Virus record (IMG/VR): IMGVR_UViG_3300030035_000081
Coordinates: 64,001-128,000 of that record
Strand: one strand, 5' to 3'
DNA length: 64,000 nt
Origin: a virus
Taxonomy: Duplodnaviria; Heunggongvirae; Uroviricota; Caudoviricetes
The translations under genes were made by a program, and so were the position numbers. Under the pieces are notes generated by a model that worked only from the letters and a program-made list of their open reading frames with translations, did no database searches and was not told the origin of the DNA. Positions 17,329 to 39,425 of this stretch are shown one piece after another (positions within the stretch are counted from its first letter, which is position 1; each line of letters opens with the position of its first letter).

Positions 17329-19395
<2,067 letters not shown>

Positions 19396-20778: not shown

Positions 20779-21005
20779 GAGGATTCCCGCAGATTTTCTG
20801 CGTTTAATATAGATTCATCCCACGGAATGTGGACTTCTGACAGCCGAAGGAAAGGCTGATTATATAGAATTGCTATGCTAATCAACATAGCACGCGTACA
20901 CAGCGTCAATGTGTTTATATAAATGTTCCTGCACGCGAACGCCGCGTTAAGAGCGTATTTATATATACCGTATAACAATTACAAACCTTCAAGGAGGACT
21001 TTACC

Positions 21006-21374
21006 ATGATTCGAAACATAATTTAGCGAGTAGACGCCATCATCAGCAGCCACGAAGCCAAAGCCAAACAATATACAGCTGACTATGGTTCATTCGTTCA
21101 CGGTCTAATTAAGACCTAGCTGAGCAAAGATGGTGTGATACTCGCGCTCCTGCTGGAGCAAGTGAAACTGACCGATGCCGCGAAATTTCTGCTGCTTTTG
21201 GCAGTAGTATCAATCGCTGGCGCATTTCTTGTCAAGAAAGTCTTCAAAAATTACAGCCACATCAAAGGATTGGCCGAAGACTTTCTGAAATCAGCTGACG
21301 TTTTCGGAGCTGTCAAAGAAGCGATTTCTGATATCGCCAGCGGCTCCTGCAAAACAAACAACAAAAAAGAATAA
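21006..21374 (+). pseudogene. Membrane-protein ORF interrupted by two in-frame TAG codons
   Basis: AAGGAGG RBS + ATG 21006 is in frame with ORF 21135..21374; TAG at 21024 and 21117. Confidence 0.5.
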
Positions 21375-21380
21375 TAACAT

Positions 21381-21458
21381 CCCCGATATATGGGGCTCAC
21401 ATTGCTGTGGAGATAAATTCGAGAGCAGCACGGCAGCCCCACGTTACGGGGTTATATT
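21381..21458 (+). promoter_or_regulatory. Structured 5'-UTR motif, copy 1 (pair with 60809..60883)
   Basis: gggg..cacattgc.gtggag...agagc.gcacg...cccc.cgtta.gggg directly before ATG. Confidence 0.7.
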
Positions 21459-23039
21459 ATGGCTAAGAAGAATAACAACGTCACTTTCAACGTCGGCATC
21501 ACCAACCATTACTTTGACGCTATTTCGCGCCAGAAGTTACCCATGAGCGATGCCGCTTGTGAACCGGTTGATAATGCCATCTCTAATTGCAAAGATGCCA
21601 TTAACATCTTGGTCGCGATTGTGAAAGGCCATGCCAAAAACCTAATCGGTGTGGTTATTGCCGACTGGGGCAATGGTATGTCTAAGGAAAAGCTGCCGGA
21701 AAACCTACAGTTTGGCAACGGCCACAGCAATGAGGGCCCGCTGTGCATCCATGGCGTTGGCCTGAATAATTTCATTTTGGTTGCCACCCGCAACAAGTAT
21801 CCCTGGTTCATCGCTTCCAAGCAGCCTGGAGAGGACAGCTATCACCGCGTTGACGGCCCGTTCGCCACGACCATGACGATGTCCGAGCAGGAAGAGATTC
21901 CTATGGCAGATGTCGTTATGCGTGAGCAGTTTAAGGCTCTTGGCGCTCCTTCTACCATCATCTATGTGGAGATGGACAAGGCTACCGCCAGCACCATGCT
22001 GACCAAGAACGGCAGCTGCGCTGAGAGCCGGGTCACCAGCCTGAACGTGCTGCGTACCTGCCTGGCTGAGCACTTTGGTGTCAAGTACCGCAATTACTTG
22101 GCACCTGACGCTACCGGCGTTGCTCCCGCCCGTATCCTGATTCCTGATTTCCATATGGCGAATGGCAAGACGTGCGATGTGCTCGTCAAGCCCATTTTCC
22201 AGCCGTATAAGGAGAAGCAGAAGGAAAAGAACTTCACTGTTGACTATGATGGGTACGAGATTCCTGTCAAGGTTGAGTGTGGTCAGCTGGATACGGATGC
22301 GACCAAAGGTGTTGTTACTGGTGGCTATGACTTGAAGCATTTCTACCAGAACAACATGCTTACGCAGGGCTTGGATATCCAGCTCGGCGAGCGTGTTATC
22401 GCCACCGCTCAGTTTGATACCATCTGGGACAAGGCTCGTCACCCGGCCTTCAACGCTTTCACCGGCGTTGTTGCTGTTGATATTTCCGGTCTGCCGCGTG
22501 GGTTCTTGAATACCCTCGCCAACAAGTCGGATATCGACCTGAGCGACAAGGGATGGCGTAAAATTTTCGACGCTATTGCCGAAAACGTGAAGCCTCTCGA
22601 AAGCGAGCCTCTCACTCTTGAGAAATATGCGCAGGATTTTGCAAATCGGCTGGTTGCAGACACCGGGAATGAAGTTGAACTCCAGTTCCCTCTGTACGCA
22701 AACCGGACTCGTATCGACGTTCTGGAACATATCGACGAGTCCCACTGCAAGATTTATGACTTCATGAGCGGCGTTGCTACTTTGAAGTCTGTAACCGAGC
22801 TGCGGACTCATTGGGATGGCATGGTTGCACAGGGCATTCAGCCTGTTTCGGCTGTGATGTTCTGCAATAAGCGCGGTCCTATGCTCAAACATACCTGCGA
22901 CGAGATGAATACTCTCGTGCAGGCTATGAATGACGAGGACTTCTACATGACCCTCGAAGCTGCTGGTGGTGATGCATCTAAGATGCCGCACTACAACTTC
23001 GATGTTATTCTTGACCAGAATATCCCCGTGAAGAAATAA
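21459..23039 (+). CDS. GHKL (HATPase_c/MORC-like) ATPase domain protein
   Basis: E.VDNA (N box), DWGNGM (G1), HGVGL (G2); possible nuclease-like C-terminus (RIDVL). Confidence 0.75.
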   Translation: MAKKNNNVTFNVGITNHYFDAISRQKLPMSDAACEPVDNAISNCKDAINILVAIVKGHAKNLIGVVIADWGNGMSKEKLPENLQFGNGHSNEGPLCIHGVGLNNFILVATRNKYPWFIASKQPGEDSYHRVDGPFATTMTMSEQEEIPMADVVMREQFKALGAPSTIIYVEMDKATASTMLTKNGSCAESRVTSLNVLRTCLAEHFGVKYRNYLAPDATGVAPARILIPDFHMANGKTCDVLVKPIFQPYKEKQKEKNFTVDYDGYEIPVKVECGQLDTDATKGVVTGGYDLKHFYQNNMLTQGLDIQLGERVIATAQFDTIWDKARHPAFNAFTGVVAVDISGLPRGFLNTLANKSDIDLSDKGWRKIFDAIAENVKPLESEPLTLEKYAQDFANRLVADTGNEVELQFPLYANRTRIDVLEHIDESHCKIYDFMSGVATLKSVTELRTHWDGMVAQGIQPVSAVMFCNKRGPMLKHTCDEMNTLVQAMNDEDFYMTLEAAGGDASKMPHYNFDVILDQNIPVKK

Positions 23040-23173
23040 CATCACTTGCCGTCATCCGAAAGGGTGGCGGCATTTTTTTGTTGAGCCATTGCTCAAACAT
23101 CGAGATTCCTCATGTGGGATATAGCGTTTTGTACAGATATATGCTATAATTGGCACAAAAAGGAGGAACCGAC

Positions 23174-23554
23174 ATGGCAGAAAATAATAACAACGGTGGC
23201 AAAAACACTAATATCATCACCAAAATCAACGATACCATTTCCAAAGTCCTGGGCGATTTCCCGCCCGTTGTTCAGACAATCGCAAAAATCGTTGTCTTCG
23301 GTGGGCTCATCCTGCTTATCGCCAAAGCCATCGGCTATATTTTCCCGGTTATTGTGAACGTTCTTTTCAACCTCTTAGTCAAAATCGTTGGCTTCTGCAT
23401 TCTGGCAGCCTTTCTTTACGGCTGCTGGTACGAGGTAAAACTGCAAATGACTCGCGATGAAAACTCCTTCCTACTGAATGAACGTCTCAAGTATCAGAAA
23501 AAAGAATACGAGGAACGTGAGCACAGAAGACAAGAACGAGATAACAGACGATAA
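23174..23554 (+). CDS. Membrane protein
   Basis: AGGAGG RBS, 2 TM segments. Confidence 0.8.
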   Translation: MAENNNNGGKNTNIITKINDTISKVLGDFPPVVQTIAKIVVFGGLILLIAKAIGYIFPVIVNVLFNLLVKIVGFCILAAFLYGCWYEVKLQMTRDENSFLLNERLKYQKKEYEEREHRRQERDNRR

Positions 23555-23611
23555 TACATAATCATAAATAGGCTGTCCAGCTTCGGTTGGGCAGCTTTTT
23601 TTATTTTCCTG

Positions 23612-23639
23612 TTGCAGGCTCTTGCGAATTGTATACCAT
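23612..23639 (+). promoter_or_regulatory. TGCGA-type promoter (no leader)
   Basis: ttgcag-gctct-TGCGA-attgta-taccat after a terminator. Confidence 0.6.
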
Positions 23640-23662
23640 AAAAAGTATGAAAGGAGTTTATC

Positions 23663-23911
23663 ATGAAAACACTTGAATCCTTTTTTAGCAGAACTGCACA
23701 GTTTGGCTTGCTCATTTATCTGACCGGCTGCTTTGGCCTGTTGATTGTTTTAGGCGCTGCAGTCGCAAAATGGTTTAAACTCATCGACGTAATTCAATAT
23801 ATTGCCTTTGCTTTTGGACTTGGACTCCTCACTTTGCTTATCGGCGTGGTGGGTCTCTCACTCCTCGGCATTAGGCAAAACCGCAAACATAAGGAGGTAA
23901 AACGCGCATGA
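23663..23911 (+). CDS. Small membrane protein
   Basis: 2 TM segments, AAAGGAG RBS. Confidence 0.75.
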   Translation: MKTLESFFSRTAQFGLLIYLTGCFGLLIVLGAAVAKWFKLIDVIQYIAFAFGLGLLTLLIGVVGLSLLGIRQNRKHKEVKRA

Positions 23912-25122
23912 GTAAAAAGATTATCAATATCACCGCAGCTGCCATGGCACTCGCCGTGACACTTTCCGGCTGCGCCACAGCTGTGGTTCAGGAACGGAAA
24001 GACCAGGCAGCCGCAGCAGCAAGCGCAGAAGCAGCACAGGCTGCCGTCACAGCAACACCGGAACCGACAGCAGAACCGACCCCGGAACCCATCAATGCCT
24101 GGTCTTTGTTGTCGAATCTCCCGGATTTCACGCCCGGCACGCTGGACAATCCTGACACTACCTGGCCGGACGGTATTCCGATGGGGCAGAGTCCTTTGTC
24201 TTACGATGACGGCAGCAAGTTCTATTCGCTGCGCAGCGTTGATACCGGCAAGACACTGGATATCACGGACGTTGCATTACAGGATGTACGGGATTTGCCT
24301 GTAAAGGGATATCTGAAATTGAACGAACTTGAAAACGGTGATACAGTCATTGGTGAAATCAATGCAGAATCCACAGGCGAAGGCGTAGAAAAGGAAATCA
24401 GTGATTTTTCCATTCACACTGCCAGCAAGGATGACGGCTGTGACTATTATCCGATTGGATATAACGGCGGCTCACTGACCTTGATGCTGGACGGTCGTGC
24501 AGCCAATGACGACGGTATCGATATTGGTGATGCGTTCCTTGACGGTCTCTATTATTCGTCTGTCACCCCGGATAAACTCGAAGGCTATCCGACCGACGGA
24601 GAGCCGGAGGAACAGTTCAACTTCCTGTATGGTTTGTTTGGCAATCCGTCCGGTCTCTACTGGACAAACAACGATTCTGTCGCTTTCAATTCCAGCAAGC
24701 AGTATCGTACCTTTGAAGATTTCCGAGATGCAGATTATGATGTTGAAATTGGCGGCAAGAACTTCTATCTGGTTTGGAACTATGACGGGTATAGTGTTGT
24801 TGCGGCGTGCAACGATACCTTTGACAGCGCTAATGTGAAGGGCACTACGATTCAGGATATCTACTTGTTCCCGAACATGACAGAAACCAAGTACCTCGTC
24901 GAAAATTCCGGCAGCCTGATTAGCGGTTATCTGGGTTATGGTGAAGTTCCCGTCATCTTGACTGGTACATACGCATCAGTCAACAGTGATTCGACTGCCG
25001 AACAGGATACAAGCGCGGAAGAAAACACCGACGCTGAATCTGGTGACAATTCCACGGCGGACGAAAACGCTGAGTCCAGTTCCGATGATAACAGCGACAG
25101 CTCGGAAAATTCAGATTCCTAA
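23908..25122 (+). CDS. Lipoprotein, acidic
   Basis: Lipobox LSGC, Ala-rich/TPEP linker. Confidence 0.85.
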   Translation: MSKKIINITAAAMALAVTLSGCATAVVQERKDQAAAAASAEAAQAAVTATPEPTAEPTPEPINAWSLLSNLPDFTPGTLDNPDTTWPDGIPMGQSPLSYDDGSKFYSLRSVDTGKTLDITDVALQDVRDLPVKGYLKLNELENGDTVIGEINAESTGEGVEKEISDFSIHTASKDDGCDYYPIGYNGGSLTLMLDGRAANDDGIDIGDAFLDGLYYSSVTPDKLEGYPTDGEPEEQFNFLYGLFGNPSGLYWTNNDSVAFNSSKQYRTFEDFRDADYDVEIGGKNFYLVWNYDGYSVVAACNDTFDSANVKGTTIQDIYLFPNMTETKYLVENSGSLISGYLGYGEVPVILTGTYASVNSDSTAEQDTSAEENTDAESGDNSTADENAESSSDDNSDSSENSDS

Positions 25123-25139
25123 TTCTTAAAAAATAGTTA

Positions 25140-25255
25140 TTGCGTATTCGTGCGAAACGCATACAATAAAAATTGTATGATAGATAACAGCACATATACG
25201 CTATAATTTCACAATTCTGAGAAGCAGACTATCCGTTTGGAGGTCTGCTTTTTTT
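25140..25255 (+). promoter_or_regulatory. Promoter-leader-attenuator module copy (short)
   Basis: TGCGA-N6-tacaat, ttgtatgatagataaca, ttcacaattctg, AGCAGACT..GGTCTGCT-T7. Confidence 0.8.
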
Positions 25256-25320
25256 GTTGGAATTTTGCGGTGCTTTGCTGACGTTTATCGTAACTAATCA
25301 CTACAAGGAGAAATAAAAAG

Positions 25321-25644
25321 ATGACCGTAACAAACACTGTAACAGAAACAGAACACTTAACTCCCCTGCGTTCCGCTGTAGAGCACATCAACTGGAATAC
25401 TTTGTACCAGCAGAAAATGGCTCTCGAAGAAGTCTCTGACATGCTCTATGCCAAGAGAAAAGAGGATGACACGTTTGGCAAGGCTTCCGCCTGGCTCGAA
25501 AGCGTCATTGCACTCATGGAACGTTTGGGGGATGCAGCAGAAGAGGAAGGAAAGTTTAATTATCCCGAACGGGATGAAAACGACAAGCACCTGGATGATA
25601 GGTTCAATCATGTGTTGAATCAGTACCCGGATGTGGATATCTGA
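25321..25644 (+). CDS. Hypothetical protein
   Basis: AAGGAG RBS. Confidence 0.75.
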   Translation: MTVTNTVTETEHLTPLRSAVEHINWNTLYQQKMALEEVSDMLYAKRKEDDTFGKASAWLESVIALMERLGDAAEEEGKFNYPERDENDKHLDDRFNHVLNQYPDVDI

Positions 25645-25665
25645 CCAGTTCATATCAGGAGGACA

Positions 25666-25911
25666 ATGATGCGGATTAACAGCAGCTGTGTGCTTCACAG
25701 CACCACGAGTCTCAACGCAAGAGTTCTTCCGCTCATTGGACGGGTCGGAACTCTTGAGCTGTCAAGTGGGCAGCCACTCGTATTCAAAACAACAACACCA
25801 AAACAACAAGACGTCCTGCGTACCAGCACAGTAAAAGCTATTGGCTTTGCAGGAAGCAGAATTTTTGTCAAAACCGAAAGAGGAACCCAATACACATTTG
25901 AATTTCAGTAA
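25666..25911 (+). CDS. Hypothetical protein
   Basis: AGGAGG RBS. Confidence 0.7.
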   Translation: MMRINSSCVLHSTTSLNARVLPLIGRVGTLELSSGQPLVFKTTTPKQQDVLRTSTVKAIGFAGSRIFVKTERGTQYTFEFQ

Positions 25912-25991
25912 CAACCAAGCGGCCACTAATCTCATTTTTTTATAGATTGGCGGCCGCTATTTTTTTATCAATTTGAAAGGAAGTTTTTATC

Positions 25992-26876
25992 ATGAATTTC
26001 ATCAATGCCGCCACCAAGAAAGAACGCACCCATGTAGAAGAAATTATCAAGTCTCAGCCTGTTATGCCTCATGAAGGCATAACTGCCACTGAGATTGGTA
26101 TTTGCGGCAAGCAGAATCTTTTCATGGACGTTTATCGCCCGGATAACGATGCCGAAAAGCATCCGATTATCATCAATATCCATGGCGGCGGCTTGATTGC
26201 TGGCCGGAAAGAACAGAATCAGAACCTGGCAACCTGGCTCGCTAAGGAAGGCTATCTCACCTTTGTGCCGGATTACCGTCTGGTCCCTGAAACCAACATC
26301 TTTGGCCAAATCACTGATGTCATCAATGCGTTTGCTACTGTAGCTGAACGTGCTGAAGATTTCGTTGGTGACTTGAATCAGGTCTTTGTAGTTGCCGACA
26401 GCGCTGGCGCATTCCTTGCCTGCATGGCAAGCTCTATTCTCCGCTATCCTGTCAAGATGCAGCCGGTAGAGGACGAACTGGAAGAGAACGTACCCGAGGC
26501 AGCCAAGAAGCTCGTCATCAACGCGATGGGCCTGCAGAGCGGTATGTATTACATCTACAAGGGCCAGGTAGGTTTGCTTCAGAACTACTATATGTCTAAG
26601 GGCTGGAAGAATCACAGTTATGCTGAGTTCATCAAGCCTGAGACCTATTCCAAACTCATCCCCCCGTGCTATATCTGCACCGGGAAAAAGGACTTTCTCA
26701 AGAAACAGACTTTCGGATTTAAGAAGTGCCTCGAAAATGAGCGCGTTCACCACGATTACGGGTTTGTTTCCAAGAAGGAAACCGTTCATGCTTTTGCAGC
26801 ACTGTATCCTGAATCCGAATCAGCAGTCGGTGTAAACCGCGAGATGATTCGGTTCTTCGACAGTTTCAAAAAATAA
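25992..26876 (+). CDS. Alpha/beta hydrolase (HSL-type esterase/lipase)
   Basis: HGGG oxyanion motif, DYRL.PE, ADSAG nucleophile elbow, D and H triad residues. Confidence 0.9.
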   Translation: MNFINAATKKERTHVEEIIKSQPVMPHEGITATEIGICGKQNLFMDVYRPDNDAEKHPIIINIHGGGLIAGRKEQNQNLATWLAKEGYLTFVPDYRLVPETNIFGQITDVINAFATVAERAEDFVGDLNQVFVVADSAGAFLACMASSILRYPVKMQPVEDELEENVPEAAKKLVINAMGLQSGMYYIYKGQVGLLQNYYMSKGWKNHSYAEFIKPETYSKLIPPCYICTGKKDFLKKQTFGFKKCLENERVHHDYGFVSKKETVHAFAALYPESESAVGVNREMIRFFDSFKK

Positions 26877-26914
26877 TAAAACCAAAAAAACAAATAACAA
26901 GGAGGCATTTCATA

Positions 26915-27325
26915 ATGACTCACAATGAGTTGGTTCATGACCTCTGCACTCAAGATTCGATTGTGGTGCAGAACTTTGCTGAGCTGATGCGGTTTGTGCT
27001 CGACGGCAAAGCGGAAGTTATTTACGACGGTTGGATTAACGTCTATGTTCCTATCTGGTTTGATGCAGACAAAGCATTTGGCCTTGATTTGAACTCAGAA
27101 GAAAATGCAGATTGGATTAACATGTACATTGACTGGCATCCGGACGATACCATTCATGCCTATGTATCTTACTGCAACAGTTCTACTGACGACCCCGACT
27201 TTACTCTTGAAGTCATCATGAGCCCTCACCACCGGGAATTGTTCAATGCGTATTTCAAAGAACAGTTTAAGGCGGTTTATCACATGAGTGTCGAAGAAGC
27301 GTGGGCTAAATTCGGCACCGAATAA
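26915..27325 (+). CDS. Hypothetical protein
   Basis: AAGGAGG RBS. Confidence 0.8.
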   Translation: MTHNELVHDLCTQDSIVVQNFAELMRFVLDGKAEVIYDGWINVYVPIWFDADKAFGLDLNSEENADWINMYIDWHPDDTIHAYVSYCNSSTDDPDFTLEVIMSPHHRELFNAYFKEQFKAVYHMSVEEAWAKFGTE

Positions 27326-27344
27326 TATAGTGAGGAGATATATC

Positions 27345-27833
27345 ATGGCACGTAAAGAAATCAAAATTTTCATGGACGCCAAGGAAGCTGCCAGTTTCCT
27401 GAAAACTATCGATTGGTCCTGGCTGTTCGGCTTTCTCAGTGAGCGCTATAACGTTTCGCTCAGCCCTCACAAAGAGCTGAAAGACAACGGCGCAGCAATC
27501 ATCAAGGTCGAATGGCCTGATGAACTGATTGAAAAGTGCGGAATGATGGCTGATGTCTTCTCGTCAGTCAAGCTCGTCACGTTCGATTCGTATTTCAAGG
27601 AAATCGTGGAATACGATGAAGATAAGTTCAATGAAGAACGTGAAGCATGGTTTACCAATCCGACAAAGACGTTCAGCTATCTCGATTGCGATGGCGTCGT
27701 CAAGGAACGGACTCTTGCGCTGAACATCTCCCTTCGCTATACGCTGTATGACGGAGGCTACAATTTCGCAACGCTGCTCTATGCGGTTTATTCCGATGTG
27801 AACGGCTGGACTATCCAAATGGAAAAGGAGTAA
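27345..27833 (+). CDS. Hypothetical protein, paralog of 52307..52822
   Basis: IDW..LF.F....Y...V.WP..L..KCG...GGYNFA.L..A.Y....GW. Confidence 0.8.
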   Translation: MARKEIKIFMDAKEAASFLKTIDWSWLFGFLSERYNVSLSPHKELKDNGAAIIKVEWPDELIEKCGMMADVFSSVKLVTFDSYFKEIVEYDEDKFNEEREAWFTNPTKTFSYLDCDGVVKERTLALNISLRYTLYDGGYNFATLLYAVYSDVNGWTIQMEKE

Positions 27834-28381
27834 TGGCAATGGTTGAAATGGCATTCAAAGTAAATCCCGGTTCCGAATTCTACAAAAATTATTTTTCGAC
27901 AAAGGAGGAAAAAGCGCACTTCGTTGAAATTGCGAAGCAATTCTTCGACAAATATTTTCCCGGTGAGAAATTCTCGTATGTCTTGAATGACCGGTTGACG
28001 GTCGAATTGACACCAGAGCTGTTCGCCAAATACGAATCTCAGGTCATGAAACGCCGTGACCCTCACGGTTTTGTCATCTTTAAACAGCGTTCGCCCATGA
28101 ACTGCCTGTGGGAAGATGAGGTCTGTAAGAACGTGAACGGCAAGAAATTCCTTGCCAACCAGTTCTGGTGGGCCGACTTCAACGGTTCTGGCCGCATCAC
28201 TACGGAGCTGTGGGATGATGAGCAGGGAAATATCTACGGATATTATTCCTGCGAATATGCAACTCGCAGCACCAAGGTTCCAGACACCGTTACGCAGATT
28301 AAGCTGAGTGAATATTACGCGGCTTACGAAGCATACACGGAAGCCAAAAAAGCAACTGCTGACGCCGCTGCTACAGCTTGA
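27833..28381 (+). CDS. Hypothetical protein
   Basis: TAATG overlap with the upstream gene. Confidence 0.8.
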   Translation: MAMVEMAFKVNPGSEFYKNYFSTKEEKAHFVEIAKQFFDKYFPGEKFSYVLNDRLTVELTPELFAKYESQVMKRRDPHGFVIFKQRSPMNCLWEDEVCKNVNGKKFLANQFWWADFNGSGRITTELWDDEQGNIYGYYSCEYATRSTKVPDTVTQIKLSEYYAAYEAYTEAKKATADAAATA

Positions 28382-28507
28382 CGCTGCTTGCGATGCCGGT
28401 AAAATTGTGAATGTACGATAGATAACATCTGCGCATTTCAGCGCTCGTACAATTCACAAACTGACACATTAGGCAGACTCATCTTCACGATGGGCCTGCT
28501 TTTTTTT
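28378..28507 (+). promoter_or_regulatory. Promoter-leader-attenuator module copy
   Basis: All sub-motifs present. Confidence 0.9.
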
Positions 28508-28528
28508 GTTTGAAAAGGAGTAAAAAGC

Positions 28529-29098
28529 ATGAACACAAAACGAATCAAAGAACTGGCTGCGCTGACCGATGGTGAACTTGCAAGGAAACTTCTCATCCAG
28601 GAGTTTGGCAATGACTCTGAAGCCCATTGGGGAAACAACGCACACGATGAACGTGTGATGGTTACTATCAATCCAGACGGAATCGCTCAAAGGACCTGGG
28701 AAGCCGACCATTGGGTTCGCCTTGACGAATTCGACAAAGACGGTTTCTATGCCCGTGAGATTTACGAGGGAAAATGGGTCGATGAGCCATTGCCCAAAAA
28801 CGTCATTGCACGAAATGTCACAATTGCTGCACCGAAACCTATTCAGCAGGAATCCAAAGACACTGAAATTCTTCGAGCGGCACAAGTCCTGTGCAAGCAG
28901 CTGACCGGAGATGACACCTTTGGATGGAATCCTGAGCTTCTTGCACAGATTGCGGATTGCACGGCAGCTTTGCTTGCCACCAACGGAATCAGCTCTCATT
29001 TTCCGAGCGCCAATACTGAACCCATCTGCTCTTGGGAAAAGCCGGTCGTCGAATATCAGCGTCCGGATTACGCCCTGGAGTATGGTACTAACTACTAA
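28529..29098 (+). CDS. Hypothetical protein
   Basis: AAGGAG RBS. Confidence 0.8.
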   Translation: MNTKRIKELAALTDGELARKLLIQEFGNDSEAHWGNNAHDERVMVTINPDGIAQRTWEADHWVRLDEFDKDGFYAREIYEGKWVDEPLPKNVIARNVTIAAPKPIQQESKDTEILRAAQVLCKQLTGDDTFGWNPELLAQIADCTAALLATNGISSHFPSANTEPICSWEKPVVEYQRPDYALEYGTNY

Positions 29099-29506: not shown

Positions 29507-29639
29507 TTGCACATTCGTGCGAGACCCATACAATTAGAATTGTACGATAGATACCAGCAATTGAAAAGGTGCTTTGCCTTTCGTACAATTCACATTTCGC
29601 TTGAAGGCGAACTTCCAATATCTGGAGGCCCGCCTTTTT
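29507..29639 (+). promoter_or_regulatory. Promoter-leader-attenuator module copy
   Basis: All sub-motifs; perfect antiterminator ttcgc/gcgaa. Confidence 0.92.
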
Positions 29640-29668
29640 GCGTACTTACAAAAAAAGGAGTGTAAATT

Positions 29669-29959
29669 ATGTTTATCATCACAAAAACTTTTACCGATGA
29701 CGAGGGCCATCTTTTCACAAAGGTAAATCCAAAGCAGTATTCCACTCCCGGAGAAGCATACGATGCTATGCGTGAGGATTACCTCAATGAGCTCAAAAGC
29801 CGAGGTCTTGAGGACAACGGCGGTTCCAATGAAGATGGCGAATCCTGCCCTGGCGGATACATCATCAGCGATGAGGCTCAAATCTACGATTTTGCCCAAT
29901 ACACCCCGTATGAACAGCTTCTTCCTGCTGTTTTGTTCGGAGTCCATCGGATTGGTTAA
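29669..29959 (+). CDS. Hypothetical protein
   Basis: AAGGAG RBS. Confidence 0.75.
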   Translation: MFIITKTFTDDEGHLFTKVNPKQYSTPGEAYDAMREDYLNELKSRGLEDNGGSNEDGESCPGGYIISDEAQIYDFAQYTPYEQLLPAVLFGVHRIG

Positions 29960-31454: not shown

Positions 31455-31589
31455 TTGACGCGCCTTGCGAACAGCATATCATAGAAATTGTACGATAGAT
31501 ACCAGCAATCGAAAGGGCGTTTTGCCTTTCGTACAATTCACAATTTCGCATGAAGAGCGGACTTCCCACATCGGGAGGTCCGCCTTTTT
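31455..31589 (+). promoter_or_regulatory. Promoter-leader-attenuator module copy
   Basis: All sub-motifs present. Confidence 0.92.
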
Positions 31590-31619
31590 GCGTTATAACA
31601 ACAAAAGGAGTGTATTTTT

Positions 31620-31916
31620 ATGAAAATGACAATCACAGGCCAAATTGATGGCAAATCCGTGCCAATAACTATTCCGATTGAAAAAGTTATCGAAGCTTTC
31701 TGGCCTTACGCCACCAAACCTTCTGCTCTCTCTGTTTCCACTGAGCTTGACGCAGACGGCATCAGTGCTAACTTCATGCTCGGCCAGGAAACGAAGGATT
31801 CTTATCCCGGTATCTGGCTCACCAGCAAAAACAGCAATACCGGTCGTGCAGGTTTCTGGTTCTGTTTGGAGCTGCCAAACAGTCGAAGCGCGTGCTTTGG
31901 GTGGATGGGTCGTTAA
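31620..31916 (+). pseudogene. Truncated family A paralog
   Basis: Aligns with 45017 up to ELPN, then diverges and stops. Confidence 0.7.
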
Positions 31917-32056
31917 CTCACGTTGAACCTCTAACCGACAACTATCTGAAACGCCAAGGCGCTGCCACCGAAAAGCAACTCGATGAGTACGACGCTTGAA
32001 CTGATACCATAAATTTCCCCACCTAACCAAAAATAACAAATAAGGAGAGTAAAACT

Positions 32057-33085
32057 ATGTATCTCGAAACTATTGATGAAAAAGCGTTCCGTTCTTTTCT
32101 TTCTAATCCTGCTATTTCCGTTCTGGACGGTAACGTTCTGGATAAGCACTACAACTCGAATTTCTACCGTTTTGTCCGCGTTCCCCTTTCCGATGGCGAG
32201 CATAGTGTCGAGGCATTATTTGGGCAAATGTGCAGTAACTATCCCACCAGCATGAGCAAAAACCATTTTTATGAACAGCATAACCTTGAGTTTATGGCTT
32301 ATGTTGTGGACCACGAAAAGACCTATGCTGAAAGCTATGAGTTCCTGCGATTGTTTGATGCCACCTCTGCTTACACTGGTCCCCATTCCGCAATGGGTGA
32401 GATGACGAAAACGCTGTGGGATTATCTGGAGCAGAAAACAATTCTCGACCCTGACTATCTGAACACGCCCGAATTGCAGAACGAGGCTTATGAAAACGCT
32501 GTCAAACAGTATGTCCTGCAAAAGAAAGACACCGCATTTGAAGAAAGCCTTCGTAAATTTCTTGAGCACATTGATGACACCGCGACCATCGAGTTCTTTG
32601 CTAATCCTACCGGATGGGCGGAAAGGGTAGTCAATGTCCTCGATAAGAATCTCACTTCTCGCGATGGCACACCTTTCAGCGAAAGCATCGGGAAAAAATT
32701 CGTTGCCGTCCAACGTCTTACCCAATCAAGGATGCTGGAGTTCCAGTCCAAGCCACATTGTTGGGAAAGTGAGTGCCGTAGTTTGTTTGCTGCGACTGCA
32801 AAAGCAAAAAACATTCGGCTCGTTATTGAAGCCAATGGAAAAGAAATGCAGGTGCAATATCCTGTTTCCAACCTGATTACTTTTGAAATGATTAAGAATA
32901 AGGTCATTTCTGCATGGGCTATTGCACCGCGCAAGCTCAGCGATGAGGTGAAAGAATTTCTTGCAGAGAACTGCGCTGGCTACAGTAAATACTGGTCTGA
33001 TATTCCCATGAAGACTGTCTCTCGCATTGAAAGTGGGCGCAAAGTTCTTTGGGAGAATCCTTACTTTGAGGGAAACAGAAAATAA
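32057..33085 (+). CDS. Hypothetical protein (paralog family B)
   Basis: RFVRVPL..GEH.VEAL and ANPTGWAER shared with 37941, 39426, 45774. Confidence 0.85.
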   Translation: MYLETIDEKAFRSFLSNPAISVLDGNVLDKHYNSNFYRFVRVPLSDGEHSVEALFGQMCSNYPTSMSKNHFYEQHNLEFMAYVVDHEKTYAESYEFLRLFDATSAYTGPHSAMGEMTKTLWDYLEQKTILDPDYLNTPELQNEAYENAVKQYVLQKKDTAFEESLRKFLEHIDDTATIEFFANPTGWAERVVNVLDKNLTSRDGTPFSESIGKKFVAVQRLTQSRMLEFQSKPHCWESECRSLFAATAKAKNIRLVIEANGKEMQVQYPVSNLITFEMIKNKVISAWAIAPRKLSDEVKEFLAENCAGYSKYWSDIPMKTVSRIESGRKVLWENPYFEGNRK

Positions 33086-33164
33086 TGATAGCCGTCAGAA
33101 CAAATTGTGCCGACACTTGATTTGCTTCACCAGAGTCCTGCAGAAATGCGGGGCTCTTTTTTTA

Positions 33165-33303
33165 TTGCCAAAATATGCGATTCGCCTAAAATGAAAGTTG
33201 TACGATAGATACCATCTACTTGGCGCGTTTTTTTTGCGTTCGTACAATTCATAATTCTGCAAGCAAAGAGCAGACTCACCGTCTTGGTGGGCCTGCCTTT
33301 TTT
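33165..33303 (+). promoter_or_regulatory. Promoter-leader-attenuator module copy
   Basis: All sub-motifs present. Confidence 0.92.
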
Positions 33304-33335
33304 GTTTGCGCAACTATAAAAAGGAGTGTAAAAAA

Positions 33336-34661
33336 ATGTTTATTGGCTACAAAGACGGTTCTATCATTTTCGGTGGAACCACCAACCAACCCCACGATAA
33401 CCTTGTCATAACGCTTGACGAGATGGAACAGCTGGCCGCATTCTACCAGCATGAGCAGGACAAAACGGCAGTCAAGAAATACCTCAAAACCGCTATTAAC
33501 ATTCTGGGCTCGGCGGAGATTTCTACAGAGCTCGCCAAGAAGTATCTGTACGACGCCGGGCTGCTCGACCAACTTGTCGAGGAATCGAATCACAGCCAGG
33601 AAAATTTCGGCGATAACTTCCTCACATCCATCGCAAAGGGCATCGAGGCGCTGGAAAAGAAGCTCGATGTCAAGAAATGGGAAGGCTTGCCGGAACCCGT
33701 TGCCAATCGGATGGCTCACGAGTTCATCGCAGAACGGAATCCTTGCCGTTGGACCGGTTCTGGTGATGCTCCTGACGATGTAGGTTTCGAACCCCTGAAC
33801 TTTCCGATTGACGACATCTATCCTAAAGGTGATAAGCCAGTGTTGCGTATGCAGCTTATCGGCACAACCTTCCCAAAACTCCATTACGTCTATGAGTGCA
33901 GCATCATTGAAAACGGCGTAGACCTCTGGGCTCGCCGGACGCAAGATACTATGACCGCTGGAAGCATCGAAAGCTTGGTGGACACTATCCTGTATGTGGC
34001 TCGCGCATATGAGCTGAGCAAGGGCTTTGAGCGAGTGTATGTTCAGCGCTCGACTCTTGACAAGGAGGAATATGACGGAATCATTGCCGGGTTTCGCTAT
34101 GGTGCAAACTTCGACAAAAACAGCTTCATTTCTGTCAGTGGCTTTTTCCCGGATGACATCGACATGACTATCACTTGGAAGTGTGATGATGACGGCAAAG
34201 TATACAATGAGGCTGTCCTTCACAAGAATTCCTCTGAAGAAGTCCTGGCTTATTCCGGCCGCATGTACAAATTCTGCAATCACTACGTCCTGCCGTACAA
34301 GGGTGCAGAATATCATGTGATTGTCAATGTCCTTCCTGAACCCCACGTTCTGGAAAAAACCGTTTACATCAGCGAGAAACGTGCCAGAACCATTGAAAAG
34401 TATCTTCGCGGCAAAGAGCTGCAGGGGATGGGCGCATCGTTGAGTGAGACGGCTACGTTTCCGGACGGTTTCAGCCTGGATATTCGCTGCTGTGGTACGG
34501 AGGACGATTCTTTCGCCGAAGCCATTCTCTACGACTGCGAGGGCGAAGAGGTGGCTCTTACCGAACCCTGTGACGCTTTCACTGGTTGCTGGGAACTGGA
34601 AGATGAAACCACTGGCACTACTTATCGTGCCCATGTCATGACAGAGTCTGACTACAACTAA
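33336..34661 (+). CDS. Hypothetical protein (family C), paralog of 48247..49566
   Basis: Extensive identity (ERNP.RW.G.G, PLNFPI.DIYPKG, YRAHVMT). Confidence 0.85.
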   Translation: MFIGYKDGSIIFGGTTNQPHDNLVITLDEMEQLAAFYQHEQDKTAVKKYLKTAINILGSAEISTELAKKYLYDAGLLDQLVEESNHSQENFGDNFLTSIAKGIEALEKKLDVKKWEGLPEPVANRMAHEFIAERNPCRWTGSGDAPDDVGFEPLNFPIDDIYPKGDKPVLRMQLIGTTFPKLHYVYECSIIENGVDLWARRTQDTMTAGSIESLVDTILYVARAYELSKGFERVYVQRSTLDKEEYDGIIAGFRYGANFDKNSFISVSGFFPDDIDMTITWKCDDDGKVYNEAVLHKNSSEEVLAYSGRMYKFCNHYVLPYKGAEYHVIVNVLPEPHVLEKTVYISEKRARTIEKYLRGKELQGMGASLSETATFPDGFSLDIRCCGTEDDSFAEAILYDCEGEEVALTEPCDAFTGCWELEDETTGTTYRAHVMTESDYN

Positions 34662-34719
34662 TCTTAATCACATTAAGCCGCCTGCCTTCGGGTAGGCGGC
34701 TTTTTCTTGTATATCTCGC

Positions 34720-34850
34720 TTGTAGGAACGTGCGAGCTGCATAAAATAGTATTTGTACGATAGATAACAGCCTATGCCTACTTGGTCGTACAATTTACAA
34801 TTCTGCAAATAAATGGCAGACTCACCGTCTTGGTGGGCCTGTCTTTTTTT
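34720..34850 (+). promoter_or_regulatory. Promoter-leader-attenuator module copy
   Basis: All sub-motifs present. Confidence 0.9.
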
Positions 34851-34878
34851 GTTTGCACATCTAAAAAGGAGGAAAATT

Positions 34879-35427
34879 ATGAGTCCTACAAATGATATGA
34901 AGGCACGTTTATTCGTCGATATGGATGGCACTCTCGCCGTCTGGAAGCAGGCGGCCTGCTTTGAGGACCTGCTTCAGCCGGGCTATTTCAGAGATTTGCC
35001 GCCCTATCAGACGGTTTTGGATGCTGTGAAGATTCTTTGTACCACGAAGCCGGAACTTGATGTGTATGCACTTTCCGCCTATATTCCGGAAAACCAATAT
35101 GCGGTTTCTGAAAAGAATGCCTGGCTTGACGCTTATCTTCCAGAAATTGATTCCGAACACCGCATCTTCGTTGCGTGCGGCAGCAGCAAGGCCAGAGCCG
35201 CAGCAAACCGCTTGAAGACACCGTGCATCGACAACTCTTTTGTGTTGCTTGACGACTACTCGGTGAATCTTCATGAGTGGAAAGCCAATCGCGGCAGCTG
35301 CATTAAGCTCCGCAACGGTATCAACGGCAACGGCGGAACCTGGAAAGGTGAATCTGTCACTCGATTCGATACCGCCGAAAACATCGCAGACCGTATTTGG
35401 AGTATCATCAAAAAACAAATGCAATGA
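34879..35427 (+). CDS. HAD-superfamily 5'(3')-deoxyribonucleotidase-like protein
   Basis: FVDMDGTL motif I, K..WL, LLDDY..NL..W. Confidence 0.85.
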   Translation: MSPTNDMKARLFVDMDGTLAVWKQAACFEDLLQPGYFRDLPPYQTVLDAVKILCTTKPELDVYALSAYIPENQYAVSEKNAWLDAYLPEIDSEHRIFVACGSSKARAAANRLKTPCIDNSFVLLDDYSVNLHEWKANRGSCIKLRNGINGNGGTWKGESVTRFDTAENIADRIWSIIKKQMQ

Positions 35428-35444
35428 GCTAAAGGAGAAATACT

Positions 35445-35660
35445 ATGTTTCCAAATATCAAAATTGTCGAAGCCATCCGCAAAGAATACCCCGCTGGAAC
35501 GCGGGTTCGGCTTGTCAAAATGGATGACATCCAGGCACCACCTCTTGGTACAGAAGGTACGGTTGTTGGTGTCGATGATACCGGCAGTCTCCTGATGCAC
35601 TGGGACAATGGTTCGCATTTGAACATTGTTTATGGTTCGGATGAGGTTGAGAAAGTCTGA
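35445..35660 (+). CDS. DUF4314-like protein
   Basis: YPAGTRVRLV.MDD..APP.GT.GTV..VDD.G.....WDNGS.L. Confidence 0.85.
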   Translation: MFPNIKIVEAIRKEYPAGTRVRLVKMDDIQAPPLGTEGTVVGVDDTGSLLMHWDNGSHLNIVYGSDEVEKV

Positions 35661-35669
35661 CAAGCAGAC

Positions 35670-35798
35670 TTGCTCAAACGTGCGATTCCACTAAAATTGA
35701 AATTGTACGATAGATAACAGCCCTATGGCCGAAATGCGTACAATTTACAATTCTGCAAGACAATCAGCAGACTCACTATCTCGGTGGGCCTGCTTTTT
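35670..35798 (+). promoter_or_regulatory. Promoter-leader-attenuator module copy
   Basis: All sub-motifs present. Confidence 0.9.
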
Positions 35799-35827
35799 GC
35801 TTTCAAACAATAAAAGGAGAAATAATT

Positions 35828-36673
35828 ATGTATTGCATTCAGTATGACGAAATCTGCAAAAAGCACAATTTTGAGCTGAAACACGATGCCCTTGGTGAAC
35901 GCGTAACCCTCGAGTACCCAGCCGATTCTGTCCCGAAAGATACCCTTCGTCTTTTTCAAAATCATCTTCCTGAGGGAGTATCGGCTATGGCTGAAAAGTA
36001 CAGCAGCGACCGTTTTGCCATGTTCATGTACAATGCTGCAGCGGCAGCAGGGAACACCATCAGTCTTACTGAGACCCTGGAGAAAAACAAAAAGGTTTCC
36101 GCAGCTCTCTCTGATTTGGCGGACGACCTGAAACAGGCAGAGCTGGAAGCCAAGACTTGGGTTTGCACCGACCCTGATACATGCCAGTGGCGACGTCAGG
36201 TTGGCGGAACCCGATACGAACTATACGACATTTTCGAAGCTCCAAATGGCACCTATTTTGTCGTACACGGTGAAGTAGACCCGACCGAGCTTGACCCGGA
36301 TGACTACGACCAGCTGCTGGAGGCATATTCCGGTTTGCTGGACTCTGCCAACTGTGAAAGCGAACGCTGGGCATTGATTGCTGAGGCGCAGTTTGAGACA
36401 GAAGAACTCTCGATGGAGCGCGAACGCTTTTCAACTTTTGAAGGAGCCGAAAGGGCAATTTGGAAAAAGGTTGGGGCTGACGTTTCAGATGAGAATTCTG
36501 CGACCGAAACCCGCCTTGATGCGATTCGGAAACTCGATAAGTTTCATCTTGCCGTCTTTCTGAACGATGTTCACAGCGGTGCAAAAGACTTTCCTTCCAA
36601 CAACATGAGCTGGTGTGACTGGCTCAATAAGCCTGATGATGGTCATTTGTTGGATGTGAAGACTGCTCGATGA
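35828..36673 (+). CDS. Hypothetical protein
   Basis: AAGGAG RBS, 281 aa. Confidence 0.8.
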   Translation: MYCIQYDEICKKHNFELKHDALGERVTLEYPADSVPKDTLRLFQNHLPEGVSAMAEKYSSDRFAMFMYNAAAAAGNTISLTETLEKNKKVSAALSDLADDLKQAELEAKTWVCTDPDTCQWRRQVGGTRYELYDIFEAPNGTYFVVHGEVDPTELDPDDYDQLLEAYSGLLDSANCESERWALIAEAQFETEELSMERERFSTFEGAERAIWKKVGADVSDENSATETRLDAIRKLDKFHLAVFLNDVHSGAKDFPSNNMSWCDWLNKPDDGHLLDVKTAR

Positions 36674-37158
36674 AACAAGTATGCGTTAGAGCTGATGATA
36701 GCCAAACCATCACTGCTATATATGAATTTCTGCACGACTTGGATAATGAGTATAGCAATTTTAGTAAATGGTACTATAGTACAGTCGTTCCCGAATTGGC
36801 AAGTGAAAATCGGATAATTTATACTGTTCTGGACGATGGGAAAATAGTTGCCGTTCTAATACTAAAAGATTCTGATGAAAAGAAGATTTGTACATTAAGA
36901 GTAGCTGAACATTACCGATGCCAAGGGATTGCTACAAAATTGCTAAAAATCGCACATCAGGCATTACAATGTACAAATCCACTCATTACCGTTTCATCAA
37001 TTCATATCAACGAATTTGAATTTCTGCTAAAGAAAAACGGCTTTACCCTTTATAAAAAATACGAAAACTACTACAAGCAAGGAATTGTAGAATATGCTTT
37101 TAACGGCTTATTGCCTGAAAAGCAAAACGATTGCCGCTTGTCGCAAAATGTGGTATAA
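36670..37158 (+). CDS. GNAT-family acetyltransferase
   Basis: KICTLRV...YRCQGIATKLL acetyl-CoA motif; AT-rich. Confidence 0.8.
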   Translation: MKQVCVRADDSQTITAIYEFLHDLDNEYSNFSKWYYSTVVPELASENRIIYTVLDDGKIVAVLILKDSDEKKICTLRVAEHYRCQGIATKLLKIAHQALQCTNPLITVSSIHINEFEFLLKKNGFTLYKKYENYYKQGIVEYAFNGLLPEKQNDCRLSQNVV

Positions 37159-37176
37159 TAGTAAAGAGGTGATACC

Positions 37177-37734
37177 ATGAAAATTTACACTCTGATTGGC
37201 GGCGTGAATGGCGCAGGAAAATCCAGCTTAACCGGTTCTTTGCGTTCTGAGCGTAACGATTTCGGCATTGTGGTTGACCCCGACAAACTAACCATTCAGT
37301 GTGGCGGTGACGAATACGAAGGCGGCAAACTCGCTGTTGAGCGTATCGAGCGTGCCTTAATGGACGGTGTGAATTTCACACAAGAGACGACGCTTTCCGG
37401 TGGATATCCCAAGCGGCTTTGCAAACGTGCAAAAGAAGCTGGATATTATATTCGTCTGTACTATGTCGGTCTTGATACCGCCGAAGAAAGTATTCGACGA
37501 ATTCGAAACCGTGTAGAGCGTGGGGGGCATGATATTCCCACTAAGGATGTCAACGCCCGTTTTTCTCACCGTTTTGAGGATGTCCTCAAAATTTTGCCAT
37601 ACTGCGATGAAGCTAAGTTTTTCGATAATGACAATGGATTTGTACTTGTTGCAGAATATCGCAACGGGCAGCTTCTTCCTATTGGAACATATCGACCAAC
37701 TTGGCTCAGTCAACTTCTGAATCAAGCCCAATAA
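37177..37734 (+). CDS. Zeta-toxin/AAA_33-like P-loop kinase
   Basis: GGVNGAGKS, ETTLSG, R...RV.RGGHDIP, FDN. Confidence 0.85.
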   Translation: MKIYTLIGGVNGAGKSSLTGSLRSERNDFGIVVDPDKLTIQCGGDEYEGGKLAVERIERALMDGVNFTQETTLSGGYPKRLCKRAKEAGYYIRLYYVGLDTAEESIRRIRNRVERGGHDIPTKDVNARFSHRFEDVLKILPYCDEAKFFDNDNGFVLVAEYRNGQLLPIGTYRPTWLSQLLNQAQ

Positions 37735-37774
37735 CATTTTTGCCGTTCATCTTCGGATGAGCGGCATTTTTTGC

Positions 37775-37910
37775 TTGCCATACTTTGCGAATGGCATAGA
37801 ATAGTTATTGTACGATAGATACCAACTTGTGCAGCACTTTCGCTGCCGTACAATTCACAACCTGCAAGCATCGAGCAGACTTGTCCTTTATGGATGAGTC
37901 TGCTTTTTTT
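37775..37910 (+). promoter_or_regulatory. Promoter-leader-attenuator module copy
   Basis: All sub-motifs; preceded by terminator 37741..37772. Confidence 0.9.
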
Positions 37911-37940
37911 GTTTTGCAAACCGAGAAAGGAAAATGTCAT

Positions 37941-38957
37941 ATGACTATCAGCAAGATTACCAAAAAGAATTTCAGTATCTTTCTCAAAACCGAAGTTCAG
38001 ATTATTGATGGCGACATCATTTCTGACTCTGGAAAGAACAAAGGGCATTATTATTTTGTGAAAATACCCATCAGTGAAAAGGTATGCGCTTTGTACGGGC
38101 AGAAGTTCCGGCGCAACGAACTGCTAAATTACCGGAAGGAGCTCATTTACTTCGGCCTTGTTTCTAAGGAGGGTGACGTAGCCTTCTATTCGTGTAATTA
38201 CGCCAACCTGTTCCTGGATTGTTATTCCGGGAGTGCAGACAAGGAAACTTATCTGAAAATGGCTGAGTTGTTGTACGAAAAGCTGTGCGAAATGAACCCT
38301 GAAACGGAAGTGGAAACGCACAACCCTTACTATATTGCCATCGCGCAAAAGATTGCTTTCCAGCGGGCTGTCTGCGGGAATAGCAACTATAAGAACGCTC
38401 TGATGTATCTGGCGGAAGTTGCTCAGGCACCTCTGCCGCGAGCATATGATAATCAACCTAGCTTCGACCTTTTCATTCATTATCTGGAATCTCCTGAAGA
38501 CTGGGCAGATTATGCTATCGATACGATTGACAAGTTCTATGTCGATGGCAAATATCCAGCATTCAGCGCAAGCGTAGGCCGAGATGCCGTAAGTGTTGAA
38601 CGCATGGCACGGCGGTACATTGCCAAATACAATGAACCTGGAAGCAAAGAGAACGCTTACAAGAAAATGTTCTCTGCTTTTGGTGACGCGCTAACCGTGC
38701 GTTTGAAACTCGAAATTGACGGCGACATGAAGAAGGTTCTGTATCCGGCAGCTGAAATAGCCTGTCCGCAGACAGTTGAGAAAGATTCCGTGCCTACGGA
38801 ATATATTTATCCTCTGCGTATGCGGAAAGAAGTAGAGAAATTCCTTGCAAAACATGGTTTGTCGAATGACAGGATTCCCATTGGTTGTGTCAAGGCAATC
38901 TATTATGGGAACCAGACATTCTGGAAAATTTCTGAGCCTAGAGCAGATACACAGTGA
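37941..38957 (+). CDS. Hypothetical protein (family B, divergent)
   Basis: F..FL....IDGDI...YYFVKIP...ALYGQ; YL.SP.DWA; IP...V..I.YG...W. Confidence 0.8.
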   Translation: MTISKITKKNFSIFLKTEVQIIDGDIISDSGKNKGHYYFVKIPISEKVCALYGQKFRRNELLNYRKELIYFGLVSKEGDVAFYSCNYANLFLDCYSGSADKETYLKMAELLYEKLCEMNPETEVETHNPYYIAIAQKIAFQRAVCGNSNYKNALMYLAEVAQAPLPRAYDNQPSFDLFIHYLESPEDWADYAIDTIDKFYVDGKYPAFSASVGRDAVSVERMARRYIAKYNEPGSKENAYKKMFSAFGDALTVRLKLEIDGDMKKVLYPAAEIACPQTVEKDSVPTEYIYPLRMRKEVEKFLAKHGLSNDRIPIGCVKAIYYGNQTFWKISEPRADTQ

Positions 38958-39080
38958 AGCTGTACCATTTGACCCTTTGCACCGTGCATGAGCCAACAGC
39001 GATAATCCCACAAACGTCAAATTTATAAAGAAGATTCTCTGAAAGAATCCAAAACCCAAAAATCAAGAGAGGAGTCCATC

Positions 39081-39398: not shown

Positions 39399-39425
39399 TT
39401 TTGTAATTTTGGGAGGAAAAATATC

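Follow-up and report, generated by a model that had tools for sequence, protein, structure and literature searches.

At position 29507 of the window, the whole 64,000-nt stretch of DNA analysed here, a promoter-like element with a TGCGA box inside its 16-nt spacer precedes a structured leader, a terminator hairpin and a 96-aa ORF with its own ribosome site (Table 1). This promoter-leader unit (the cassette) occurs 23 times in the window. Its consensus promoter (TTG, a 16-nt spacer holding TGCGA, and TAnAAT) is followed by GTACGAT with the 5′ arm of helix P1, box 1, a variable hairpin, CGTAC, box 2, strand A, a linker, the terminator B:C, a U-tract, strand D and the ribosome site. The TGCGA box lies at about -23 to -19, between the -35 and -10 elements, and is a putative loading site only. 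The bases of the P1 5′ arm also read as a -10-like hexamer, TACGAT (29543-29548), whose distance from the start of the -10 element is a constant 14 nt. Box 2 directly adjoins strand A, and the distance between the two boxes ranges from 21 to 64 nt. The predicted terminated leader is 79-124 nt long (median 101; 63 cassettes).

Table 1. Features of the cassette at 29507 and promoter positions of the other cassettes in the window
Feature	Position	Strand	Description
Promoter-like element	29507..29534	+	-35 TTGCAC 29507-29512, TGCGA box 29518-29522, -10 TACAAT 29529-29534
Predicted leader 5′ end (putative start site)	29542..29548	+	P1 5′ arm GTACGA
Box 1, AGATA(C/A)CA	29549..29556	+	G-A-T-A and last A invariant in 63/63 representatives, themselves found by a box-1 pattern
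P2, variable inner hairpin region	29557..29580	+	
P1 3′ arm TCGTAC	29581..29586	+	86.5% of cells paired, 3 pairs with both-side changes
Box 2, (A)ATT(C/T/A)A(C/T)A(A/T)T	29587..29595	+	8-17 nt ahead of terminator
Strand A (antiterminator 5-mer) TTCGC	29596..29600	+	Partner B, or D after read-through
Terminator hairpin	29607..29633	+	Strand B GCGAACT 29607-29613, strand C GGCCCGC 29627-29633
U-tract and strand D	29634..29642	+	U-tract 29635-29639; D = GCG 29640-29642, pairs with A and linker after read-through
Shine-Dalgarno AGGAG and start codon, 96-aa ORF	29656..29671	+	Shine-Dalgarno 29656-29660, start 29669
Further cassette promoters (span 3352..28531)	3352, 5080, 9956, 15852, 20654 (divergent), 25140, 28378	+	
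Further cassette promoters (span 31455..60335)	31455, 33165, 34720, 35670, 37775, 41408, 42589, 43990	+	
Further cassette promoters	47382 (box 1 and P2 deleted), 49612, 51426, 52867, 56187, 58931, 60186	+	

The terminator covaries strongly, with 93% of cells paired and both-side changes at 7 of 11 pairs; bases B1-B7 are more conserved than the rest of its stem. Covariation of P1 is modest, and no intact 3′ arm was found in 27 of 72 cassettes. CGTAC is conserved while the AAT directly after it is not, which supports P1 as an RNA helix. Two other candidates were tried and rejected: a second, internal promoter whose -10 would be the P1 3′ arm (no -35 enrichment), and a single-stranded-DNA promoter, whose arms are unequal and whose upstream AATT is not conserved.

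Box 1 is a marker of terminator-bearing promoters. A leader terminator lies within 140 nt of 65 of the 68 promoters with box 1, as against 19 of 81 without it; two of the remaining three have a terminator further downstream and one is a false box 1. The TGCGA box is also present at 62 promoters that have no leader terminator. In 3 of 72 cassettes (two independent loci, two of the copies being orthologous) both boxes are kept, the terminator follows right after box 2 and A:B pairing is absent. Thus, the boxes are more universal than the A:B helix. Both boxes also persist where all sequence between them has diverged.

Distribution of the cassette and nature of the replicon

HMM searches counted 27 cassettes in the source record (G000), 37 in a 389-kb relative (G001), 17 in the contig G004:C1 and, within the 180 of 268 kb examined, 36 in G002. 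Some 35-40 operons of the replicon stand behind a cassette. A strict pattern located at least 159 cassette loci in viral contigs and a second pattern at least 128 in metagenome contigs; the metagenome loci inspected, among the matches listed, were mostly true cassettes, with six chance matches. The TGCGA promoter is plasmid-specific, all 34 matches in two MAGs lying on three cassette-bearing contigs. Cassettes recombine. A sequencing run of isolate size (X15) contains a relative.

The cassette at window positions 47382-47498 has lost box 1 and the inner hairpin between two copies of GTAC, and retains TACAAT at the hexamer position, box 2, strand A and the terminator. No exact match to it was present in viral contigs; judging from this, the deletion is probably recent. 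This copy is a natural test case. The divergent cassette at 20654-21459 is followed by ~700 nt without a long ORF, and related G001 cassettes at 141-144 kb also stand ahead of long non-coding stretches.

We read the cassette-bearing replicon as a conjugative megaplasmid of gut Clostridia, not a phage. G001 encodes a Rep3 initiator, ParA, an actin-like protein, VirD4, a VirB4-like ATPase (TraG P-loop), a sortase and pilin-like proteins, along with SecY/E/G, SSB, NrdD and a type I-C Cas set. It therefore holds the gene set of a conjugative plasmid (initiator, partition, coupling protein, VirB4-like ATPase) with no virion genes of its own. The source record is a fragment without these backbone genes, and VirD4 is also encoded by G002 and by the cassette-bearing contig G004:C1. 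A terminase (PF03354) was found in one of five records, only at the end of G001, where a block with terminase and portal follows a serine recombinase. The VirD4 of G001 (353-357 kb; L183 2519-5640) adjoins this recombinase and prophage block and is 565 aa long, compared with 720-730 aa in G002 and G004. As far as gene order and length can tell, a prophage has probably inserted in virD4 of G001, which would explain the virus label. G001 segments L175 13499-19537 and L177 15437-18545 carry cas3-cas5-cas8c-cas7 and the replicon's own secG, secE, trigger factor and secY.

At least 1000 contigs, with lengths reaching 410 kb, carry the replicon initiator. Nucleotide searches (blastn) of PLSDB and INPHARED gave no match, and a literature search found no description of this plasmid family; pMMCAT, a Bacteroidales plasmid, was ruled out. 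Downstream of cassettes lie SSB, the operons of a YqaJ recombinase and of a primase-like protein, RecD2, NrdD, an antirepressor, a methylase and numerous unknown genes, and no metabolite is common to this set. The core transfer operon has the promoter and lacks the box-1 leader; TAGAGT occupies its hexamer position and a terminator lies within the operon.

Pairing of strand A with the terminator

An earlier note on this DNA had proposed that a 5-mer in each leader (strand A) complements the first strand of its own terminator (strand B). All nine pairs it named are present: TCTGC..GCAGA at 33256, 34802, 35752 and 49700, TTCGC..GCGAA at 29596, TTCGC..GCGGA at 15938 and 31545, and TCTGC..GCGGA at 41501 and 42677. 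The exact motif said to precede the 5-mer in each copy did not hold up, as AATTCACAA occurs at only 6 plus-strand sites of the window; box 2 is better described as TT(C/T/A)A(C/T)A(A/T)T.

The pairing was better than in controls with 5-mer and linker shuffled. The mean A:B energy was -3.56 versus -1.08 kcal/mol, with 0 of 200 shuffle sets as low (53 representatives, being 80% clusters of 158 leaders parsed from 173 unique ones; one mis-parsed representative was left out here and in the swap test, and parsing left out 15/173 and 16/117 cassettes). Positions 1-5 of the helix were paired in 50, 62, 60, 62 and 55 of the 62 whole-replicon representatives (of 66) with a register, under a register rule that by itself requires a pyrimidine at positions 2 and 3 and a G at 4. 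In a census of 303 redundant matches, TTCG (n = 121) went with GCGGA in 118 cases, GCAGA in 2 and GCAAA in 1, and TCTG went with both types. TTCG thus shuns GCAGA while TCTG accepts both, the one-way bias that pairing predicts. Bulged variants keep and extend the A:B helix where B is GCAGAT, and B5 remains A even in those copies, about half, where C stands opposite it in the terminator.

The further claim that the two strands change together held between the GCAGA and GCGGA subfamilies (swap p < 1e-4, n = 53) but not within them (p = 0.92 and 0.56). Columns aligned with MAFFT, in which some rows are misregistered, contained one A:B pair changed on both sides, a level that 431 of the 500 shuffles also attained. 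A tree of 62 rows, itself poorly resolved, yielded no independent A:B change events. The only Watson-Crick double change among the pairs first listed, TTCGC..GCGAA at 29596/29607, is present, but its GCGAA is private to the source record, all 12 of 12 orthologous cassettes having GCGGA. Judged from sequence, the A:B antiterminator is real as a helix and weak as covariation. Its stem is 5 bp long, with a loop of 3-13 nt without consensus in length or sequence. A protein therefore cannot be reading the hairpin itself.

Energetics of terminator and antiterminator

Nearest-neighbour predictions for 59 cassettes, with the U-tract withheld, gave the terminator an advantage over the open state of 8.7 kcal/mol without strand A and 4.3 kcal/mol with it. 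The A.C mismatch that had been noticed in many terminators is present in 28 of the 59 and weakens the predicted terminator margin to 1.8 kcal/mol, compared with 6.5 kcal/mol in the 31 copies without it. The mismatch sits at the first terminator pair to be displaced, the predicted point of invasion. At 29596 the open A:B state is predicted to win (-12.4 versus -10.2).

These predictions qualify three proposals of the earlier note. The short hairpin and the terminator were taken to be mutually exclusive; this applies to the lower 4-5 terminator pairs, which A:B replaces, but the upper stem coexists with A:B. A default-off state is favoured in 31 of 59 copies (gap -6.5 kcal/mol), is marginal in the 28 mismatch copies (-1.8 kcal/mol) and is not the predicted state of the copy at 29596. 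Expression-platform logic stands as a structural prediction, with the energy gap roughly halved and the mismatch at the invasion point. The corresponding position is the one that tunes the Clostridium pfl ZTP riboswitch, where mismatches close to the nucleation site increase read-through and barriers adjacent to it do so most strongly (PMC10085676).

A second partner of strand A beyond the U-tract

Together with the linker, strand A has a second set of pairing partners downstream of the U-tract (strand D). Both-side changes of A:D include TGCA/TGCA, TGTA/TACA, TGGC/GCCA, TCGGC/GCCGA and a perfect 13-bp stem in one G001 cassette of the 141-144 kb group. Across 57 leaders, A:D complementarity was -4.09 versus -2.89 permuted (0/5000), and it holds within subfamilies (p about 2e-4). 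It is specific to these terminators: as a group, 157 other terminator-like hairpins lack such pairing (p = 0.12), with something similar at a few ordinary terminators. Pairing of C with D was rejected, as it was not above permutation.

D is transcribed past the termination point and therefore cannot decide termination. The predicted openness of the ribosome site was 0.59 in the refolded state (A:D with B:C), 0.27 with A:B forced and 0.41 with A blocked (45 cassettes). D alone could account for the kept GC of strand A. At its first two positions, A is complementary to B and usually not to D, and some divergent copies keep A:D with A:B broken.

Search for a controlling factor

Pfam scans of 166 G000 and 259 G001 ORFs and PHROGs scans of 119 contained no antiterminator-type regulator. 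NusG (PF02357), CAT_RBD (PF03123), the ANTAR domain and ArpU (TIGR01637) were each found in 0 of 5 records; note that a host-encoded CAT_RBD protein would escape this search. No Q-family protein (PF06530) scored over cut-off in the five records, the best match being a tandem-HTH gene (E 0.2), with remote homologues liable to escape. A pairwise search with the pLS20 gene taken as conAn1 by position gave no ConAn1 match, and no plasmid antisense or small RNA against the boxes scored above shuffled controls.

The leader itself resembled no catalogued element. At gathering score, Rfam 15 contained only HEARO in the window; the best match in the 25-45 kb region (E 0.015) was Trp_leader on the terminator alone. 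An upstream ORF with ribosome site and start was present in 0 of 63 leaders, and the reading frame to box 2 is not kept (27/20/16). The UGGN bulge of T-boxes is not conserved (UGG anywhere in the region in 6/66), ANTAR-type A1/G4 hexaloops were found in 0 of 19 six-base loops, and RNAalifold gave no consensus structure for the 5′ domain. BglG/RAT membership, to which the earlier note had likened the leader, is disfavoured by the 5-bp stem with its variable 3-13 nt loop and by the lack of a CAT domain in the five records. Since neither Rfam nor the searches for NusG, CAT/BglG, ANTAR, Q, ConAn1 and antisense partners gave a match, we conclude that the leader is not a RAT.

A tandem-HTH (Mor-like) operon with an AAA ATPase (G000 52.0-55.1 kb, L003 14008-17099; also in G001, L174) is the first candidate regulator. 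The operon has a TGCGA promoter, in which TA occupies the hexamer position, and is preceded by a leader terminator of its own; its protein resembles Mor-family clusters only, with scores under 0.9. The ORF at 3883-4365, in a cassette-controlled operon and with a homologue in G001, has a weak ASCH-domain match (E 0.006, below cut-off) and is a possible RNA-binding protein. At G004:C1 110590-110461, a TGCGA promoter is followed by ~110 nt to a terminator with no long ORF; its transcript is a candidate small RNA.

Proposed mechanism and alternatives

The leader is a real, uncatalogued, regulon-wide attenuator with a RAT- or riboswitch-like platform, and by the tests run it is a member of neither family. 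We tentatively favour a mostly-off attenuator opened by a putative plasmid factor, in which case one plasmid-encoded factor would likely open 35-40 operons at once. Strand A is predicted to capture B while B is emerging from the polymerase, after which the upper terminator stem would nucleate and C would displace A. The A.C mismatch at the first displaced pair (28/59) is predicted to slow displacement, so that copies would differ in leakiness. A trans-acting protein may recognise the two conserved boxes and either hold A:B or shield the terminator base until the polymerase has passed the U-tract. After read-through, the RNA is predicted to refold to B:C extended by A:D, freeing the ribosome site. 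From its gene content (single-strand binding protein, recombinase, primase-like protein, ribonucleotide reductase, antirepressor, methylase and many unknowns), the regulon may be an establishment or replication programme of the megaplasmid. Against a mostly-off attenuator stand the lack of a regulator in the five records, the tie of compensatory change to subfamily, the 3 of 72 cassettes without A:B and the divergent copies in which only A:D is kept.

Processive antitermination of the Q/AlpA type is the main alternative, though a rather unlikely one. A plasmid protein would bind the TGCGA box and load onto polymerase held by sigma at the hexamer (+3 to +8); the loaded polymerase would ignore the leader and later terminators, and A:B would only tune the leak. 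The TACGAT hexamer stands at a fixed distance in 59 of 63 cassettes, and its lambda counterpart is AACGAT. The layout resembles that of lambda pR′ and of the Pseudomonas AlpA promoter. In the latter, a box lies between the -35 and -10 elements, CACGAT forms the hexamer (-1 to +5) and a terminator follows downstream (PMC9371919). Lambda pR′ carries GGG in the discriminator at +7-9 and pauses at +16/17 (PMC5001585). Features in common with both systems are the position of the box, a putative -10-like hexamer in the first transcribed bases, a discriminator G and a terminator ahead of the first gene (PMC9371919 and PMC5001585).

Among promoters without box 1, TAnnnT occupies the hexamer position in 6 of 19 with a leader terminator versus 3 of 62 without (p = 0.004); however, this enrichment amounts to about 3-4 independent loci, and a classification that overlooked some terminators gave weaker values (TA, p = 0.03; xAxxxT, p = 0.15). 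In cassettes that have lost P1, A2/T6 survive in 43 of 54 and C3/G4 in 30 of 54 (p = 0.013; one false box 1 left out), though GC-to-AT mutation bias could account for the faster decay of C3/G4. Orthologous promoters retain TA..T while the middle changes, the transfer-operon promoter combines TAGAGT with its internal terminator, and 80 of 87 G001 promoter matches lie on one strand. On the other side, no Q-family protein exceeded cut-off (best E 0.2) and ArpU was absent from the five records, the TGCGA box recurs on the 62 promoters without leader terminator, and T6 is C in 7 of 63 hexamers. The cassette also differs from Q/AlpA in its tens of promoters rather than one, its Gram-positive host and its structured RNA leader, and such a mechanism would leave P1, box 2 and the A:B bias unexplained. 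To our knowledge, Q systems are rare in Firmicutes. A hybrid is possible, in which the pause gives time to load the reader of box 1. Plausible, if less likely than not, is a new antitermination system behind the 35-40-operon programme: a plasmid factor of no known family would load at a sigma-dependent pause, here in a Gram-positive host, and read a two-box leader with a three-state RNA switch (A:B passes the terminator, A:D releases the ribosome site).

It is improbable that the leader is on by default and repressed in trans. Here A:B would win kinetically in a new host, and a plasmid RNA-binding repressor would later cover box 2 and A so that the terminator forms. This is the logic of TRAP, an RNA-binding repressor that lets a terminator form, and would give zygotic induction. 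The direct abutment of box 2 and A, the near-equal energies of the 28 mismatch copies and the likeness of the regulon to establishment genes fit such a scheme, as does the pLS20 attenuator cATT, which is antiterminated by default (PMC13401043). However, the terminator is favoured by ~6.5 kcal/mol in 31 of 59 copies, cassettes without A:B would be off anyway and yet keep both boxes, and no repressor was found.

A new class of small-molecule riboswitch, with P1, box 1, box 2 and the A:B helix as its aptamer, is a poor fit. Invariant unpaired bases, a ZTP-like strand-displacement geometry and the conservation of B1-B7 above the rest of the terminator stem would suit an aptamer, but P1 is not intact in 27 of 72 cassettes, the boxes are 21-64 nt apart without a consensus fold, the downstream genes have no metabolite in common and Rfam gave no match. 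Slightly poorer still is the reading that there is no switch and that leaky terminators tune strong promoters, A resembling C through hairpin symmetry (A:D) and repeat copying. The absence of A:B covariation within subfamilies, the ability of A:D to account for the GC of A, the similar distal pairing at a few ordinary terminators and the recombination of cassettes agree with it; in contrast, bases 1-2 of A pair with B and usually not D, TTCG with GCAGA is missing in one direction only, and both boxes persist where all between them has diverged. That box 2 reads a tRNA anticodon loop in T-box-like fashion (CAC/CAU, His) is barely credible; its middle triplet (CAC 30, CAT 16, TAC 4, AAC 3; n = 53), the best score of tRNA-His among 84 tRNAs and the plasmid tRNA arrays without His are set against the lack of a conserved UGGN (UGG in 6/66), copies with TTCTCAAT, TTTTCAAT or TTATCAAT that break the codon, and host tRNAs drawn from mixed MAGs.

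Comparison with known systems

The favoured attenuator shares with the BglG/SacY/LicT RAT a weak upstream helix that overlaps the 5′ strand of a stronger terminator. RAT antiterminators are hairpins with two asymmetric internal loops whose weak helix needs a factor to form (PMC3105407). The leader differs in lacking a hairpin with two internal loops, in its 35-40 plasmid copies and in the second partner D beyond the U-tract. With the platform of the Clostridium pfl ZTP riboswitch it shares a terminator that, as predicted here, nucleates at the top and displaces an upstream helix (PMC10085676), but it contains no ZTP aptamer or other Rfam family, and P1 is dispensable. ANTAR dual-hexaloop attenuators illustrate that one protein can open several leader terminators, but neither A1/G4 hexaloops nor an ANTAR domain is present here.

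On conjugative plasmids of the pLS20 family, a repeated regulatory sequence also precedes several operons (EGeRS1/EGeRS2), and EGeRS1 blocks read-through. In contrast to the cassette, EGeRS1 is 420-750 bp long with no promoter, and EGeRS2 uses a DNA-binding repressor (PMC8708921). The cATT/conAn system of pLS20 is another case of attenuation on a Gram-positive conjugative plasmid; that attenuator, however, is a single long zipper that is on (antiterminated) by default (PMC13401043). There is also no conAn1 match here, and the transfer operon is without the box-1 leader.

Few forms of early or establishment gene control are known on conjugative plasmids (single-stranded promoters, a DNA repressor, EGeRS1). 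Here, one attenuator cassette is used 35-40 times by a replicon whose initiator is so widespread, and the mechanism is open to direct test through naturally occurring variants of the mismatch, the helix and the boxes. The putative factor lies outside the antiterminator families searched; its identification would bring to light a new regulator and perhaps a Q-like mechanism in Firmicutes. Three forms of the 5′ motif were not found in the papers searched, nor was the leader found in the parts searched of the candidate-structured-RNA supplements of PMC10690425 (files 1, 2, 4) and PMC8040213 (files 7, 8), the large files lying outside the search.

Additional observations

Two near-identical elements, each a HEARO RNA with IscB (RRXRR, HNH), lie at 11427-13006 and 53729-55314 of the window. 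An array of 18 tRNA genes occupies 57.2-63.6 kb of G000 (L004 211-6564); G001 has a similar array plus a tmRNA call (L173-L174), and tRNA-His is absent from both. A second type of leader, which combines a long 5′ stem (GUACAAGCGG/CCGCUUGUAC-like) with a terminator, occurs at G001 331286, G004:C1 5334 and G000 5916, and sits upstream of a flotillin-like gene in G000 and G001.
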